From assembly GCA_028715625.1 (NCBI GenBank), contig JAQURL010000001.1, positions 36,345 to 100,344 of the forward strand: a stretch of DNA of 64,000 nucleotides, written 5' to 3'. The notes beneath the pieces are model-generated. The model did no database searches. It was given only the letters and a program-made list of their open reading frames with translations, and was not told the origin of the DNA. Positions 21,717 through 29,775 of this stretch are shown here, piece by piece (within the stretch, counting starts at the first letter, position 1; each line of letters opens with the position of its first letter). Position numbers and translations under genes: made by a program. Source of the stretch: Candidatus Margulisiibacteriota bacterium (GTDB lineage: Bacteria; Margulisbacteria; Riflemargulisbacteria; GWF2-35-9).

Positions 21717-21720
21717 AAAA

Positions 21721-21876
21721 TGGCGGGCGCTTTGCGCCAAAATCCGAATGGAATGGGCCTAAACGGGCGCGGCTGGGGCACTCCGCGGGGCAGCCGCGCC
21801 CTCGAGTGACGACTACGACGATTTCAAGGTTTTCGGGTCAGCGTTGCTGACCTGTTGGCTCTCGGGGAGAGCCAAA
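21721..21876. other. GC-rich cluster of four consecutive hairpins directly downstream of mnmE
   Basis: ggcgc-ttt-gcgcc (21726-21738). gggcgcggctg/cagccgcgccc, an 11-bp stem (21765-21801). ggtcagc-gtt-gctgacc (21836-21852). ttggctctc-ggg-gagagccaa (21855-21875). Confidence 0.5.
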
Positions 21877-21922
21877 CCCTTGCGGCAAATTCTTTTGAAT
21901 TTCTTGAAGTCCTCAGTATACT
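21855..21922 (+). promoter_or_regulatory. Operator-like palindrome plus promoter (module copy 1): TTGGCTCTC-N3-GAGAGCCAA, then -35 TTGAAT / -10 TATACT
   Basis: Perfect 9-bp inverted repeat. -35 at 21895-21900, 16-nt spacer, -10 at 21917-21922. ATG at 21930 is only 7 nt past the -10 (near-leaderless). Confidence 0.45.
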
Positions 21923-21929
21923 AAAAGGT

Positions 21930-22142
21930 ATGACAAACCTCCCACAAGTTGTATCTAATATTCCCCCGTCCGTTCAATGGCTCATCGACACCATTTGTAA
22001 CGAAATCGAGCACGGCAAGAAACTCACCTACTGGAATATCGGCAAGCATATCAAGGAACATAATACCTTCAAAAAAGGATGTCAGAATTTAACAATCTCA
22101 GAAGAAAAGAAGCATACCAAAATCGATTTGAAAGATATCTAA
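21930..22142 (+). CDS. Small hypothetical protein (70 aa); the ORF-track start at 21855 lies inside the hairpin and is rejected
   Basis: ATG follows the duplicated promoter module. MTNLPQVVSNIPPSVQWLIDTI.... Confidence 0.4.
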   Translation: MTNLPQVVSNIPPSVQWLIDTICNEIEHGKKLTYWNIGKHIKEHNTFKKGCQNLTISEEKKHTKIDLKDI

Positions 22143-22279
22143 AAGAATTGAACAGCGAAAACAAATGGAAGTTGCTTGATGAGTTTTTTCAAAAGAACCT
22201 AGATCAAATCGATGTTTTAAATGAGCAGAAGATGAATGAAAGCATAAACAATTTACTTCAAGACATATATTCAAATTAG
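22079..22279 (+). CDS. Small hypothetical helical protein overlapping the previous ORF in another frame (possible frameshifted continuation)
   Basis: 66-aa ORF with non-low-complexity sequence. Overlaps 21930..22142 by 64 nt. Confidence 0.25.
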   Translation: MSEFNNLRRKEAYQNRFERYLKELNSENKWKLLDEFFQKNLDQIDVLNEQKMNESINNLLQDIYSN

Positions 22280-22297
22280 ATTGGCTGGTCAGTTGGC

Positions 22298-22361
22298 GCT
22301 CTAAGAGAGCCAAAACCTTGTGTAAATTCTTTTGATTTATTTGAGCTGGGAGTATAATCAA
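22298..22361 (+). promoter_or_regulatory. Operator-like palindrome plus promoter (module copy 2): TTGGCGCTCT-AA-GAGAGCCAA, then -35 TTGATT / -10 TATAAT
   Basis: About 80 bp, roughly 75% identical to copy 1 (gagagccaaaaccttgtgtaaattcttttgatttatttgag...agtataat). ATG at 22362 is 7 nt past the -10. Confidence 0.45.
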
Positions 22362-23003
22362 ATGAGAATGACAGGCATTAAATATGTAATTGAACATTAT
22401 CCAGCGGTAATTGCAATACTTGGCACTTTGTCTGGACTTGTTTCGGTGTTACTGGGTGCAATAATATCAGCAAATGGAAATAAGATAAAACAGAAAGAGT
22501 TACAGCTTACAGAACAACAATTTATCTCGGACAAAAAACATCAGATCTCAAAGGAAAAGTATCAGAAATTGTTTAAGGAAAGGATTGAGGTTTACAAACA
22601 AATATTTATTGAGCTTAAGAAACTAAGTAAAAACCTGCGTGTTGTAGGGAATGCCCTATATAGGGTTGATCAATTTGGTTGTGATAGAACCGAAGTAATC
22701 ACCACAGAAAAGGTTAACGTAAAGACTTTGCAAACCCTTTTCAAATTAATTGAGGATAATAGTTTTTTGATTTCAGAAAAAACCCTTGAGTTAGTTAAGG
22801 GTCTTGAAGATTTTTACTGGAAATACAGAGCTGAAACGGATTCTTTGTATGATGTAGGGGCAATTGGCCCTGATGATATTGATGATGCGATAGAAAGCGA
22901 TCATAAGAAATTTTATGAGGAACAGGTCAACAGAATAAAAGAGTTCTATATACAGATCGAACAAGAAATATCATCAATGAAAAAGGATATGGGGTTTAAC
23001 TGA
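22362..23003 (+). CDS. Hypothetical membrane-anchored coiled-coil protein
   Basis: N-terminal TM helix (AVIAILGTLSGLVSVLLGAIIS), then heptad-rich coiled coil. No known motif. Confidence 0.45.
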   Translation: MRMTGIKYVIEHYPAVIAILGTLSGLVSVLLGAIISANGNKIKQKELQLTEQQFISDKKHQISKEKYQKLFKERIEVYKQIFIELKKLSKNLRVVGNALYRVDQFGCDRTEVITTEKVNVKTLQTLFKLIEDNSFLISEKTLELVKGLEDFYWKYRAETDSLYDVGAIGPDDIDDAIESDHKKFYEEQVNRIKEFYIQIEQEISSMKKDMGFN

Positions 23004-23113
23004 TAACAACGGGTGCAATATTCGTTACAATCTATTATCAAGAGCAGTGTTCGAATTAAGCATTTACCTGCTGACACTTGAGTAATATTAGTTGAAGGAA
23101 TAAAGTATATAAT

Positions 23114-23497
23114 ATGGATGCAGCAATAATTAAAATATTTTTTTGCATCGCTTATATAAAGGGCCTTATGCCTTCGCCTATCGTTTTATTAGTACTATTA
23201 GGGCTTGTATTATTTTACCCTCTTCGAAACAATAAAAGAGTTCTATTTCGAATATTGACTTGGGCATTTTTTGTTCCACTATCGTTTAACTTAATGACTA
23301 TGTCTGCTGGACTAACCTATAATGAGACCGAAAGTAGACTTATATCGCTTATTGTTTCTTTAGTAGTAGGCGTCATATATATTGCGGCACCACTTTTAAT
23401 TAATAGACTACAAAAATTTAAGCTTAAATTTATTGTTATTGGCGTATTATTAATATTCATTTTGGTTATCCCTGTATTCATCAAGTATGTGTTTTAA
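23114..23497 (+). CDS. Hypothetical small integral membrane protein (3-4 TM)
   Basis: Hydrophobic segments throughout. Confidence 0.4.
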   Translation: MDAAIIKIFFCIAYIKGLMPSPIVLLVLLGLVLFYPLRNNKRVLFRILTWAFFVPLSFNLMTMSAGLTYNETESRLISLIVSLVVGVIYIAAPLLINRLQKFKLKFIVIGVLLIFILVIPVFIKYVF

Positions 23498-23500
23498 GGT

Positions 23501-23722
23501 TTAGCTAAGAAAATTTTCACATTTTTTTTTATAAATCTTAGCAAAATCCATCATTTCAATGACATCTAGACGACGTTCTCCAGATTCTATTTTAGAAATG
23601 TATGATTGTGGTTTATTTAACAAGAGGGCAACATCAATTTGCTTTAGATTAGCCTCACTTCTAGCTTGTTTAAGCCTATCAATAAGCTTTAAGTACTTTT
23701 CTTTATAAATTGTTTTAGCCAT
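23501..23722 (-). CDS. XRE-family helix-turn-helix transcriptional regulator (Cro/CI-type)
   Basis: HTH: [39 protein letters not shown]. Confidence 0.8.
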
Positions 23723-24002
23723 AAATAGTTTGAAACCCCGATAATTTTATGATATATTCCAAATCAGGATATACCATAATGGAATATTAACTCAATGCGC
23801 AAAATTTTGCTTTTCTTCAAAATGAAATTCGAGCCGATTTTTCGTGACGTAGCTAAAAACTTAGACAGGAGCAAGGTGAGATAGTGGGCTGGCTTGCCGA
23901 GTCGAAGCTTTGCGACAACTATCTTTTACTTGTCCGCCTTCACTATGTTTCGGCGTGACAGTCTTCGCTAATCTCCTCGACTTCTCGTCGCTAAGCGAAG
24001 AC

Positions 24003-25897: not shown

Positions 25898-26356
25898 ATG
25901 AATATCCTGATTATTTACAAATCTGTTCATCATAAAAATACTGAAAAACTTGCACAGGTTCTTGCCGAACAACTGAAAGCCGACCTAAAACAACCGCAAG
26001 AAGTGAAAGCGGAACAGCTAAGTTCTTACGATATTATAGGGTTCGGTTCTGGGGTCTTTTTCAGCCAATTGCATCAAGACCTTTTAAAATTGGTTAAATA
26101 TCTGCCTGAATTAAACAAAAAAGTGTTCATATTTTCGACCCGAGGAACTGTTGTTGATTTTTTTTATCACTCCTCTCTAAAAAGTCTATTAAGAAACAAA
26201 GGCGCAGAACTTGTCGGGGAATTTTCGTGTAGAGGATATGATACATTTGGATTATGGAAATTTTTCGGTGGAATTGCCAAGGGTCACCCTGATACAAAAG
26301 ATATTAAATTAGCCATTAATTTCGCTGAAACATTAAAAAGTAAATTAAAAGTTTAA
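25898..26356 (+). CDS. Flavodoxin-like protein
   Basis: MNILIIYKSVHHKNTEKLAQVLA... flavodoxin fold (FMN-binding loop T/S-x-T...). Start moved to the internal ATG at 25898. Confidence 0.55.
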   Translation: MNILIIYKSVHHKNTEKLAQVLAEQLKADLKQPQEVKAEQLSSYDIIGFGSGVFFSQLHQDLLKLVKYLPELNKKVFIFSTRGTVVDFFYHSSLKSLLRNKGAELVGEFSCRGYDTFGLWKFFGGIAKGHPDTKDIKLAINFAETLKSKLKV

Positions 26357-26423
26357 AAATTCTTTTGATAATGTAAAATTCTAGGTTATGATTATAGGCA
26401 TAACTGATCACCCGGTATAAAAA

Positions 26424-27704
26424 ATGATTATAAAAAAAATCAGGATAAAAAATTATAAATCTATTTATAATTCAGGCCTTATCGAAGTTGGGGCATTAAA
26501 CTGTTTAATAGGCAAGAATAACTCAGGCAAATCAGCGTTCCTGGAAGCCATACATAAAATTAATCCTTATTTACCATCCTCTTCAGCCAGCCTTTATGAT
26601 ATTCTTGACGCCCCTAAAAACAAAACAGATTTTGTTAATGAATCCACAGTTATTGTTGAGGCGGAATTCGAACTCTCCAAGGAAGAAACTGAAATTATTT
26701 ACCTGAAATTCGGAAATCATTGCTTAAAATCAAACCTAATAAAAATTACTAAAAACTACAGCAATCAGTTTGTTTGGGATTTTGAGGTTGATGAGAACGT
26801 TTATATCAATCATATTATTTTTAAACGTCAATTACCTGTAGAATTTGGCAACCTGCTCAAAGATATCGCTACTATTGAAGAATGCCTGACAGAGGCCAGA
26901 AAATTCGAGAACCCGCCTAAAACAGTTACATCCTTTATTAATCAACTGGAAATTCTGCAACTCCGGTCTATGAAAGAAGAAATAATAGATGGATATCTTT
27001 CCTCTTTCCTGCCTAAAATTCATTATTTAAAAACCATACCTGATTTTAATAATAATCTTTCTCTTAAATACATTAATAAAGATCTTTATAGCGATATGAA
27101 CAAGGAGAGCGTCAATCCGTCGACCGCTTTTTGTAAGCTTATAAATGCTGATATTGATGAATTAATTTTCGGAGATGCTACAGAGGTGAAACTAAAGCTG
27201 GAACAAATGGCCGACCAGATTAATAATGAGCTGTTTCATTTATTCCCCGATTTCAAATCATACAGACTTCGCTTTGATAACAAGTACATTGTTGTTGATA
27301 ACAACATAGTAGACTCAATGTTTAAAATTTTTGTAATTGATACATCTAATAATGTTGAAATCCCTATAGAAAAATTCAGCAGTTCGTTTGTCTATATCCT
27401 ATCTTTTATAAGTACTTTACAGTTCTTTAAATTTAAAAGTAAAAACACAATAGTCCTAACAGAAAATCCCGCGCTTATTTTGCACCCTGAAAATCAAAAA
27501 ATTTTCAGAGAAATAATGGAAACAAAAACATCCGAGCAATTCCAGATTTTTTATACCACCCATTCTCCCTTTATGCTTAATAAAAATTCTAAAAATATCT
27601 ATGCTGTTTATCATTCCGCCCAAGATGGAACAACGGTTACCCAAAACGTTGATAAGAAAAATGATGACGGAACGTTAAGGTTGCTGGATTTTGCTGAGAT
27701 TTAA
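26424..27704 (+). CDS. Orphan AAA_21/ABC-type ATPase of the OLD/abortive-infection ATPase family (no Toprim or other nuclease domain)
   Basis: Walker A GKNNSGKSAFLEAI. C-terminal IVLTENPALILHP (OLD-like Walker B/D-loop region with TENP replacing DEPE). H-loop TTHSPFML. Confidence 0.6.
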   Translation: MIIKKIRIKNYKSIYNSGLIEVGALNCLIGKNNSGKSAFLEAIHKINPYLPSSSASLYDILDAPKNKTDFVNESTVIVEAEFELSKEETEIIYLKFGNHCLKSNLIKITKNYSNQFVWDFEVDENVYINHIIFKRQLPVEFGNLLKDIATIEECLTEARKFENPPKTVTSFINQLEILQLRSMKEEIIDGYLSSFLPKIHYLKTIPDFNNNLSLKYINKDLYSDMNKESVNPSTAFCKLINADIDELIFGDATEVKLKLEQMADQINNELFHLFPDFKSYRLRFDNKYIVVDNNIVDSMFKIFVIDTSNNVEIPIEKFSSSFVYILSFISTLQFFKFKSKNTIVLTENPALILHPENQKIFREIMETKTSEQFQIFYTTHSPFMLNKNSKNIYAVYHSAQDGTTVTQNVDKKNDDGTLRLLDFAEI

Positions 27705-27719
27705 AAATCTTGAGGTGTT

Positions 27720-28145
27720 TTAGTTTTTAAATATTCTTCTCAAAACTACGTAAAAAGTTTCTTTTCTGAACGGTTTGACAATATAATAATGTGCACCCAT
27801 CTGCATTGCCTGTATCACTCTGTTCTTGTCTCCAAGAGCTGAAACCATTACTATCTTTGTTTTTGGCTTCATTTTCACCAATTCTGGCAAAACGGCAAGC
27901 CCGTCTTTCTTGGGCATAGTTATATCAAGGGTAATCAGGTCCACATCTTCTGTTATTTTATTCAAAACATCAATAATTTCCTCACCATTGCTGGCTGAAC
28001 CTAAAATATTAAACCCGAAATCACTCAATGTTCGGCTGACTATCTTAACCATAGCCATGGAATCATCTACAATAACGGCAGTTAAGGGTTGACCATTTTC
28101 CTTGGTCCCAATATATTGTATTTCATCGTTAGTATTGATTAACAT
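27720..28145 (-). CDS. CheY-like single-domain response regulator
   Basis: Receiver motifs DDS..., LITLDITMPKKDG, KIVMVSALG. Confidence 0.8.
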   Translation of the reverse strand: MLINTNDEIQYIGTKENGQPLTAVIVDDSMAMVKIVSRTLSDFGFNILGSASNGEEIIDVLNKITEDVDLITLDITMPKKDGLAVLPELVKMKPKTKIVMVSALGDKNRVIQAMQMGAHYYIVKPFRKETFYVVLRRIFKN

Positions 28146-28307: not shown

Positions 28308-28904
28308 ATGAAAAAAATATTATTCCTGCTTTTTTTAATTGTCCTATCCTCATCCTTTGGTTTCGTGCATCCCAGACAAGTTAAAATAAAAACCCTTGCA
28401 GAGATGCAAAAAGAACAAATGAATAAACGTATTTTAAGTTCCTATTCTGTCTTTGCCTTATCCGCCGGCAACCTGTTTTATCCGGGCTTTTCCATACAGG
28501 AAGGATTTTATAGCCTTGAGTACGGCCTTATAACCAAAGATTTATTCAGTTATAAATTCAGTTTAGGAGCAGGTTCCAACAAGGATAGCGCCGGCAACAT
28601 TATGAAAACTTATCCGCTGGATTTTGACATTTTAGTCGGTTATGGGATTATGTCTCGAATTGATACTTATTTGGGAGCGGGAGCGGGCTATACAATAATT
28701 CAGGATTATATCAATAAACAGGGACTTAATTACCATTTTATCGGAGGTCTTAACTTTTCTCTTTCCCAACAGTCTTCTTTTTTTATTGAATACAAAAGAT
28801 ATTTTCTAAATATAGATGCTGTTGATTTAAATTCCGAATTACTGAAATTCGGGTTTACTTTTAAATTCTATCCTCAGGCTAATACAATAAATGGTGAAAA
28901 CTAG
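28308..28904 (+). CDS. Putative outer-membrane beta-barrel protein
   Basis: Signal peptide MKKILFLLFLIVLSSSFGF. Alternating hydrophobic beta-strand pattern with Gly/aromatic richness. Confidence 0.4.
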   Translation: MKKILFLLFLIVLSSSFGFVHPRQVKIKTLAEMQKEQMNKRILSSYSVFALSAGNLFYPGFSIQEGFYSLEYGLITKDLFSYKFSLGAGSNKDSAGNIMKTYPLDFDILVGYGIMSRIDTYLGAGAGYTIIQDYINKQGLNYHFIGGLNFSLSQQSSFFIEYKRYFLNIDAVDLNSELLKFGFTFKFYPQANTINGEN

Positions 28905-28959
28905 TTATTCATATCCTTATATGATATGATAAAATAAAATAAAAAGGGGTGGTGATTAA

Positions 28960-29331
28960 ATGGTTCTTGATTTAAATGTGTCCATGAGAGAGAAAAACAA
29001 TATACCGATTATAGACCTGGAGGGTGAGATTGACGTTTATACCTATCCAAAGTTAAGTGATGCCTTGAAAATAATTTTTGAGAAATATCCAAGCACTAAA
29101 GATTTGATAATTAACCTGGGGAATGTTCGTTATATAGACAGTACCGGGTTGGGCGTAATTGCCAATGGGGCCAGTCAAATCTCAAAAATATCCAACGGTT
29201 ATGTTACTATCATCAATGCAACCCCGCAAATACGAAAAATATTTGATGTGTCAGGTCTGATATCGACGAACTTTAATCTTTATGACAATGAAGATACAGC
29301 TCTAAATCAAATCAACAGCAAGAACAGTTAA
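28960..29331 (+). CDS. STAS-domain anti-sigma-factor antagonist (SpoIIAA/RsbV-like)
   Basis: YIDSTGLGVIANG phosphorylatable Ser/Thr region. Confidence 0.8.
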   Translation: MVLDLNVSMREKNNIPIIDLEGEIDVYTYPKLSDALKIIFEKYPSTKDLIINLGNVRYIDSTGLGVIANGASQISKISNGYVTIINATPQIRKIFDVSGLISTNFNLYDNEDTALNQINSKNS

Positions 29332-29346
29332 AAAGGAGGGGCCAGC

Positions 29347-29775
29347 ATGGTTGAACCGATAAAAATTGAGTTATCTATCCCCAGTTTATCTGATTACGTA
29401 GGAGTAGCTCGTTTGGCTGCCTCCGGTATTGCAAATCGTATGAAGTTTACTCATGAGGATATTGAAGATATAAAGATCGCTGTTTCTGAAGCTTGCACCA
29501 ATGCCGTGCAATATGCCTACGGAGACAAAATTGGGGAAATTAAAATTATTTTCCTCATCCACGATGACTTTCTGGAGATAAAGGTTGTCGATCACGGAAG
29601 AGGATTTGAGGTAAATGAACAGTCTGAAAATAATTTATCTGACCCCGATAAAATCGGACTGGGACTGGGAATTGTATTCATGCGCAGTTTAATGGACAAA
29701 GTCACCCATACCTCTACGCCGGACAAGGGAACTGAAGTCATTATGATCAAAAAACTCCCTGTCAAAAATGACTGA
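29347..29775 (+). CDS. Anti-sigma regulatory factor, Ser/Thr kinase (SpoIIAB/RsbW-like HATPase_c)
   Basis: N-box EACTNAVQYAY. G-boxes HGRGFE, GLGLGIVFM. Confidence 0.75.
   Translation: MVEPIKIELSIPSLSDYVGVARLAASGIANRMKFTHEDIEDIKIAVSEACTNAVQYAYGDKIGEIKIIFLIHDDFLEIKVVDHGRGFEVNEQSENNLSDPDKIGLGLGIVFMRSLMDKVTHTSTPDKGTEVIMIKKLPVKND

Follow-up and report, generated by a model that had tools for sequence, protein, structure and literature searches.

A Toprim-less, catalytically degenerate OLD-family ATPase in the core genome of Candidatus Margulisbacteria

OLD-family proteins are defined, and have been studied, as ATP-powered phage-defence nucleases. Class 1 OLDs such as P2 Old, Thermus scotoductus OLD (Ts OLD; 6P74), Vibrio cholerae OLD and E. 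coli YbjD/OldB are stand-alone single genes, found on mobile elements, that combine an ATP-binding cassette (ABC)-type ATPase head containing a helical insertion (Pfam AAA_15/AAA_21) with a C-terminal Toprim nuclease domain. Among other described systems, GajA (Class 2) has a fused Toprim domain and an adjacent gajB gene, AriA of PARIS (Class 4) always adjoins AriB (DUF4435/Toprim), and PtuA of Septu and of retrons Ec78 and Ec83 always adjoins the HNH protein PtuB. Here we describe a gene in a 64-kb stretch of Candidatus Margulisbacteria DNA (from contig JAQURL010000001.1; "the window" below means this whole stretch) that encodes an OLD-family (AAA_15) ATPase of 426 amino acids (26424-27704, + strand). 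Like Class 1 OLDs it is a stand-alone gene and shares their LPxxxY, Walker B hhhh[DE], LHP and TTHSPFM motifs; unlike them it lacks the Toprim domain, the catalytic Glu and the signature Gly, belongs to a separate, long-branch clade, and lies in conserved core genome. The description that fits it best is that of a new variant derived from the Class-1-like OLDs, without Toprim and catalytically degenerate.

Two precedents bear on what such a protein might do. E. coli YbjD truncated to residues 1-377, which deletes the Toprim domain, or carrying the K35A mutation keeps its anti-phage phenotypes (PMC13261556). Cran1 of the Sulfolobales (OLD clade U11) is a vertically inherited OLD that is involved in the cell cycle and seemingly has no defence role (PMC12796447). 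In their light, an OLD head that functions without a nuclease is plausible. Cran1 is also a precedent for domestication within one lineage, but it is archaeal and essential, and both its ATPase and its Toprim nickase are active, whereas neither activity is predicted for the window protein.

Identity and architecture of the ATPase

The open reading frame (ORF) runs from an ATG start to a TAA stop, and its product exactly matches the NCBI protein MDD5455459.1, from a Candidatus Margulisbacteria metagenome-assembled genome (MAG), which is labelled "AAA family ATPase" and nothing more specific. Residues 1-384 match nearly all of the Pfam AAA_15 profile (E = 7.7e-21; 75.6 bits, with the cut-off at 32.1), and the C-terminal half matches AAA_21 (E = 4.9e-14). 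In PADLOC, the protein matches generic models of ATPase parts, led by AriA (3.7e-25) and Old (3.7e-23) and followed by HEC-01A, GajA and PtuA. NCBIfam gave only sub-threshold matches to defence ATPases, RecF and Rad50, with the PtuA model reaching 20.5 bits against a cut-off of 500. Membership of the housekeeping SMC/RecF/RecN/Rad50 families finds no backing in these profiles: RecF scored 27 bits (cut-off 172), Rad50 24 bits (cut-off 700), and SMC_N 31.9 bits (cut-off 40) over the N-terminal 45 residues only. The original prediction, made from the sequence of the window, had placed an OLD/AAA_21-type ATPase at exactly these coordinates and had looked to such profiles to expose a housekeeping protein; its assignment holds. 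In the 90%-identity clustering, the protein falls under a 43-residue partial "S1 RNA-binding domain" protein from a Clostridia MAG, which is evidently a clustering artefact.

Neither Pfam nor a Toprim hidden Markov model (HMM) detected a Toprim, HNH or other extra domain in the protein, as had been predicted. It therefore carries the N-terminal AAA_15/AAA_21 ABC-type ATPase with helical insertion of an OLD protein, lacks the C-terminal Toprim nuclease with its catalytic acids, stopping at the linker at residue 426, and for want of a Toprim domain does not qualify as an OLD nuclease. A word-indexed search returned one close orthologue (P0001; 77% identity, 429 residues) and then only proteins of 634-738 residues that carry an OLD-like Toprim domain (PF20469) C-terminal to AAA_15. 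Alignments to these proteins show that the window ATPase ends at the linker directly before their Toprim motif LLVEGxSD. Its best match of solved structure, by sequence, is Ts OLD (6P74). The original prediction had compared the gene with systems that pair an ATPase with a separate partner gene (Gabija, Septu and PARIS). That comparison does not hold: the nearest relatives are fused ATPase-Toprim OLDs, and what has been lost is a domain rather than a partner gene.

Ts OLD dimerizes through the helical insertion of its ATPase head. An AlphaFold2 model of the window ATPase (pLDDT 78, pTM 0.78) shows an ABC/SMC-type head with a helical insertion at residues ~124-273 (26793-27242, +), made up of helices at 124-195 and 214-273 with pLDDT mostly 80-90. 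By its position in the model, this insert would correspond to the dimerization domain of Class 1 OLDs. The model matches only the heads of PtuA, SMC, Rad50, GajA, AriA and Ts OLD. The suggestion that the central region might conceal an effector fold is not borne out, as the insert is helical and the model contains no hidden effector.

Catalytic motifs and the short clade

The family is rare, and an exhaustive HMMER search of 1.84 billion cluster representatives was the only search that recovered it. This search added four short relatives to P0001: P0012 (433 residues, 40% identity), P0013 (429 residues, 35%), P0014 (a 368-residue fragment truncated at the N-terminus, 39%) and P0015 (446 residues, 30%). 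The other top matches are OLDs at ≤30% identity, mostly of 620-660 residues, plus fragments (P0017 and P0028). Outside the short clade, the nearest relatives have the ATPase-Toprim architecture and are 25-28% identical to the window protein. Neighbour-joining groups the six short proteins as a monophyletic clade, on a long branch, in all 100 bootstrap replicates. Long-branch attraction is possible in such a tree, but the grouping is backed by a common point of truncation, by the motif pattern and by synteny, which all point the same way. Fragment P0014 apart, the six are ~430 residues long, and all share an end at the linker and the absence of both the Glu after Walker B and the signature Gly, the features by which we propose to define the clade. 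Two of them bear Candidatus Margulisbacteria names: the window protein and P0013, which exactly matches OGI07527.1 from Candidatus Margulisbacteria bacterium GWF2_35_9. We do not count P0017 (397 residues) and P0028 (442 residues) among the Toprim-less members, short as they are: with canonical LLLDEPG and RSRGF motifs and abrupt or frameshift-like ends, they seem to be fragments of full-length genes.

Pattern-based scans found no relatives of the ATPase in GTDB genomes or viral contigs, nor in JGI metagenomes with either the single sequence or a two-sequence alignment as query, and a word-indexed profile search with the clade alignment missed even known members. The short clade was likewise not found in viral contigs, in phage genomes (by tblastn) or in plasmids. 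Full-length relatives (~25% identity) occur on 78 plasmids, one of them beside IS66 on a conjugative Octadecabacter plasmid. The picture is of a mobile OLD nuclease lineage, one branch of which has become fixed in the chromosome within a single candidate phylum.

We read the catalytic motifs against Ts OLD, in which E276 stands in for the Walker B Asp, H283 and H310 occupy the D-loop and the H-loop, respectively, and K34A, E276A and H310A each abolish ATPase activity (PMC7049728). In the window protein (all on the + strand), the Walker A motif or P-loop GKNNSGKS is intact at residues 30-37 (26511-26534), the ABC signature position is degenerate (FSSSF at 27375-27389, where relatives have RS[KR]GF), and TIVLTENP...LHP spans residues 342-355, with the Walker B strand at 27447-27470 and the D-loop-equivalent His354 at 27483-27485. 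The TTHSPFML block at residues 378-385 includes the H-loop TTHSP with His380 (27555-27569). The predicted Walker A and TTHSPFML motifs were thus both read in the translation. In the alignment to 6P74, E347, N348 and H354 pair with E276, E277 and H283, and the window ATPase therefore keeps the P-loop Lys, the Walker B metal-binding acid and the D-loop and H-loop His residues. Asn348 takes the place where ABC ATPases carry the catalytic Glu. The earlier claim that the Walker B acidic pair has been replaced accordingly stands for its second residue but not for its first, since E347 is retained as a natural variant of the kind seen at E276 of Ts OLD. Judged by these motifs, the residue set of a competent ATPase appears incomplete, with K36, E347, H354 and H380 present and Asn348 replacing the Glu after Walker B.

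To place these residues in the family, we aligned the window ATPase with its 143 best matches and compared the six clade members with the 138 other relatives. The Glu after Walker B is present in none of the six (N, N, T, T, D and N) versus 134/138 relatives, and the signature Gly in none of the six versus 137/138. The D-loop His is kept by two clade members (the window ATPase and P0001) versus 135/138 relatives, and the H-loop His also by two, including the window ATPase, with Gln in the other four (133/138 relatives). The signature Ser is found in 4/6 versus 135/138. Two positions are kept throughout: the P-loop Lys in all five clade members that cover the site (136/138 relatives), and an acid (D or E) at Walker B in 6/6 and 138/138.

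The clade has also gained invariant residues. Twelve positions that are invariant among its members occur in only 0-13% of the 138 relatives: K95, Y127, S170, L178, R181, M183, E186, G190, Y191, K215, D297 and L326. Seven of these (S170, L178, R181, M183, E186, G190 and Y191) cluster at residues 170-191 of the helical insert, where the clade-specific motif SFINQLEILQLRSMKEEIIDGY (26931-26996, +) lies. The pattern QLE(I/L)L.(L/I)R.M..E(I/M)I.GY is common to the window ATPase, P0001, P0012, P0013, P0014 and P0015. This conservation marks residues 170-191 as a candidate new interaction surface.

The degenerate sites of heterodimeric ABC transporters (TAP1/2, CFTR and TM287/288) bind ATP and do not hydrolyse it. 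The motif pattern of the short clade is analogous to that of TAP1, CFTR nucleotide-binding domain 1 and TM287, in which the Glu is replaced, the H-loop His is changed to Gln, the signature is altered and the P-loop is intact. These transporters belong to another family with another architecture, and in the window ATPase, presumed to be a homodimer, both sites would be degenerate.

Among the full-length relatives, the catalytic position of the Toprim "VEG" motif is not Glu in 23 of 113 (~20%), including two of the closest, P0016 (LMVNY) and P0019 (VLVRS). Inactivation of the nuclease may therefore recur in this OLD branch and precede outright loss of the domain. We found no paper describing Toprim-less OLD proteins in a full-text search of the literature.

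Selection, core-genome context and possible roles

The gene is under purifying selection. Between the window ATPase and its orthologue in the locus of the 77%-identical relative (L001), pN is 0.118 and pS 0.658 over 425 codons, giving a dN/dS of ~0.08 that is approximate because dS is saturated. For the flanking genes, the same comparison gives 0.008 (the CheY-like gene) and 0.05 (the phosphate transporter gene PiT). Intact short ORFs of 426-446 residues are found in independent assemblies of four or five lineages. The 66-nt intergenic stretch before the ATPase (26357-26423) is almost identical in L001, at a distance at which synonymous sites are saturated, and contains a promoter-like site, TTGATA-16 nt-TATGAT (26365-26392, +; 10/12 matches in a consensus scan), whose function is putative. 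The conserved stretch and promoter-like site suggest that the ATPase forms its own transcription unit.

The exact 12-mer AAATTCTTTTGA occurs three times on the + strand of the window (21887-21898, 22324-22335 and 26357-26368), each time with a TATAAT-like hexamer ~17 nt downstream. One copy lies upstream of the ATPase and two upstream of orphan ORFs. They look like a shared promoter or regulatory element, and co-regulation is possible.

Three or four lineages retain the ATPase in an equivalent core-genome neighbourhood. Of the four loci whose flanks could be read, three keep a convergent CheY-like gene beside the ATPase: its product is 98% identical in L001, and in the GWF2_35_9 loci (L085) the ATPase (35% identical) is again convergent with the orthologous CheY (71%). 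In the P0012 locus, an ABC-2 transporter pair occupies the CheY position. On that contig the ATPase lies upstream of a 196-residue gene, STAS, an anti-sigma kinase, rpsB, tsf, an IMPDH-like gene and guaA, and PiT/PhoU and GSIII are close by; the window has the equivalent block downstream of the ATPase, beginning with a 198-residue gene. A scan of genomes for the PiT neighbour was uninformative on synteny, returning matches of ≤55% identity from many phyla.

All genes annotated in the window are housekeeping genes; a few further ORFs have no annotation. Besides rpsB, tsf, the IMPDH-like gene, guaA, PhoU/PiT and GSIII, the annotated genes include those for a methyl-accepting chemotaxis protein, MetRS, YidC, Jag, MnmE, PBP1, TyrRS, TsaD, GltX, PEPCK, BirA, DapF and RNase III, as well as fmt, def, ribBA and accC. 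We found no defence gene in the 64 kb. The defence framing implied by the original prediction is weakened by this context, which is the conserved core genome of one candidate phylum and contains no defence island.

From the observed identity, truncation, motif pattern, monophyly, synteny and selection, we lean on balance toward the view that the protein is an OLD-derived, nuclease-free pseudo-ATPase that binds nucleotide, hydrolyses it little, acts as a switch or scaffold, and is kept in the core chromosome. In this scheme, the ancestor of the clade would have carried a single-gene (Class-1-like) OLD ATPase-Toprim nuclease and lost the Toprim domain by clean truncation just past the ATPase-Toprim linker. 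The clade would have shed residues needed for turnover (the catalytic Glu and signature Gly throughout, the D-loop and H-loop His in most members), with the P-loop Lys/Ser and the metal-binding acid of Walker B retained. Thereafter the gene would have become fixed in the core chromosome, with its own promoter and under purifying selection. The protein would bind ATP with slow or no hydrolysis, would dimerize through the helical insert by analogy with Ts OLD, and could serve as a nucleotide-occupancy switch or scaffold whose residues 170-191 engage a protein or DNA partner, without nuclease action. The conserved core-genome context tips the balance slightly from a classical mobile defence role toward a lineage-specific cellular one, as for Cran1.

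Several points weigh against this reading. ATP binding without hydrolysis is deduced from motifs alone. Turnover by Ts OLD is low, and the signature motifs of Class 1 OLDs are reportedly degenerate in general (PMC7049728); loss of motifs is thus no absolute proof of inactivity, and some residual hydrolysis is possible given that the window ATPase keeps E347, H354 and H380. The saturation of dS makes the measure of selection approximate. Only six 50%-identity clusters are known in all, and for P0014 and P0015 there is little context or a different one. The ATPase diverges much faster than CheY (35% versus 71% identity), which would fit an arms-race gene. An effector acting in trans is possible, since our view of the genome spans 64 kb.

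A more specific possibility, which we hold only tentatively, is that the gene has been domesticated in Margulisbacteria, with both ATPase sites degenerate and a core cellular role, which would make it the first bacterial, catalytically dead counterpart of Cran1. Such a role might be that of a nucleotide-sensing scaffold in chromosome or cell-cycle functions, or lie in signalling through the adjacent CheY or partner-switching proteins. If the pseudo-ATPase reading is right, the survival of a clade that sheds both the nuclease and the hydrolysis residues of an OLD and keeps the P-loop would be evidence from nature that the OLD ATPase head is biologically active by itself, as the YbjD data also hint, and evidence too that ATPases of defence systems can be co-opted as non-catalytic switches. 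At 49 kDa, the protein is compact, and as a naturally occurring separation-of-function variant it offers a way to probe what the OLD head binds or senses, within the practical limits of a tiny family and an uncultured host.

The gene could instead be a one-gene anti-phage or toxic module that needs no nuclease, its OLD head sensing a phage cue and triggering growth arrest. The phenotypes of the YbjD variants favour this explanation, as do the best profile matches of the window ATPase, which are models of defence ATPases, and its fast evolution relative to its neighbours. The ~20% of full-length relatives without Glu at the Toprim catalytic position also agree with it, in that the nuclease may often be dispensable. 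However, the YbjD phenotypes required induced over-expression (PMC13261556), the gene holds a core-genome position in several lineages of one phylum, the locus is not a defence island and has no mobile-element genes adjacent to it, and the clade is absent from the phage, plasmid and viral collections searched. We consider this explanation unlikely.

The protein could also be the sensor or scaffold half of a split PARIS- or Septu-like system whose nuclease effector is encoded elsewhere in the genome. PARIS and Septu need an active ATPase. We searched for a partner with the Toprim HMM, which was built from 110 relatives and recovered its positive control at 1e-78, and obtained no match in six frames of the window, L001 or L083-L088, in agreement with a smaller, earlier model. 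PADLOC found nothing among the neighbours in all loci examined, Pfam and PADLOC scans detected no HNH protein among the neighbours in three loci, and the window ATPase has no UvrD-like helicase of the gajB type beside it. Lacking the partner genes of GajA, AriA and PtuA, it cannot be assigned to any of these systems. The absence of an adjacent nuclease partner noted in the original prediction thus extends to the orthologous loci, which argues against a canonical partner lost in this genome alone. A 165-residue ORF upstream of the ATPase in L085 was considered as a partner and rejected; it has no similarity to flavodoxin and no Pfam, PADLOC or Toprim match. A split system is made rather improbable by these results from the window and from the three orthologous loci with readable flanks, by the nearest relatives being fused OLDs rather than AriA or PtuA, by the loss of catalytic residues in the clade where PARIS and Septu depend on ATPase activity, and by the nearly always operonic organization of split defence systems.

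That the gene is a decaying relic of an OLD nuclease, or a product of truncation by frameshift or misassembly, is very improbable even though the nuclease domain and several catalytic motifs are gone and the branch is long: the relic option of the original prediction is refuted by the purifying dN/dS, the intact ORFs of similar length in five other clusters, the near-identical upstream stretch with its promoter-like site and the new clade-specific invariant residues, and a CheY gene that begins 15 nt past the ATPase stop leaves no room for a frameshifted Toprim domain.

Flanking genes and minor sequence features

The flanking genes are those named in the original prediction. Upstream lies a flavodoxin-like gene (25898-26356, +; Pfam Flavodoxin_5/_3), which is missing in L001, where PiT directly precedes the ATPase (window 25898-26356 versus L001 1-449). 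Its presence or absence relative to the 77%-identical relative is a recent gene-sized insertion or deletion, and flavodoxin is a variable neighbour, outside the ATPase unit. Downstream, the convergent gene encodes a single-domain CheY-like response regulator (27720-28145, - strand; Pfam Response_reg, E = 4e-25). The ATPase and CheY stop codons are 15 nt apart (27705-27719), compared with 13-41 nt in L001 and L085. We found no intrinsic terminator between the two genes, and their transcripts may overlap at the 3' ends.

Beyond CheY, window positions 28308-29775 encode the 198-residue protein, which has a weak, sub-threshold Pfam match to an outer-membrane beta-barrel, together with a STAS antagonist and an HATPase_c_2 anti-sigma kinase. 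The P0012 genome and the window both keep this trio immediately before rpsB-tsf.

On the other side of the ATPase, a 2.3-kb gap with a GC content of ~0.33 separates mnmE from tRNA-Ser(GGA) (21720-24000). It contains only orphan ORFs of ~70, 66, 223 and 127 residues, the last predicted to span the membrane, and an XRE-type helix-turn-helix gene (23501-23722, - strand). Within the gap, a 50-nt direct repeat of 72% identity (21846-21895 and 22284-22333) carries a hairpin, GTTGGC.CTC...GAGAGCCAA. A small islet at the tRNA, accessory or integrated, is one possible reading of this gap.
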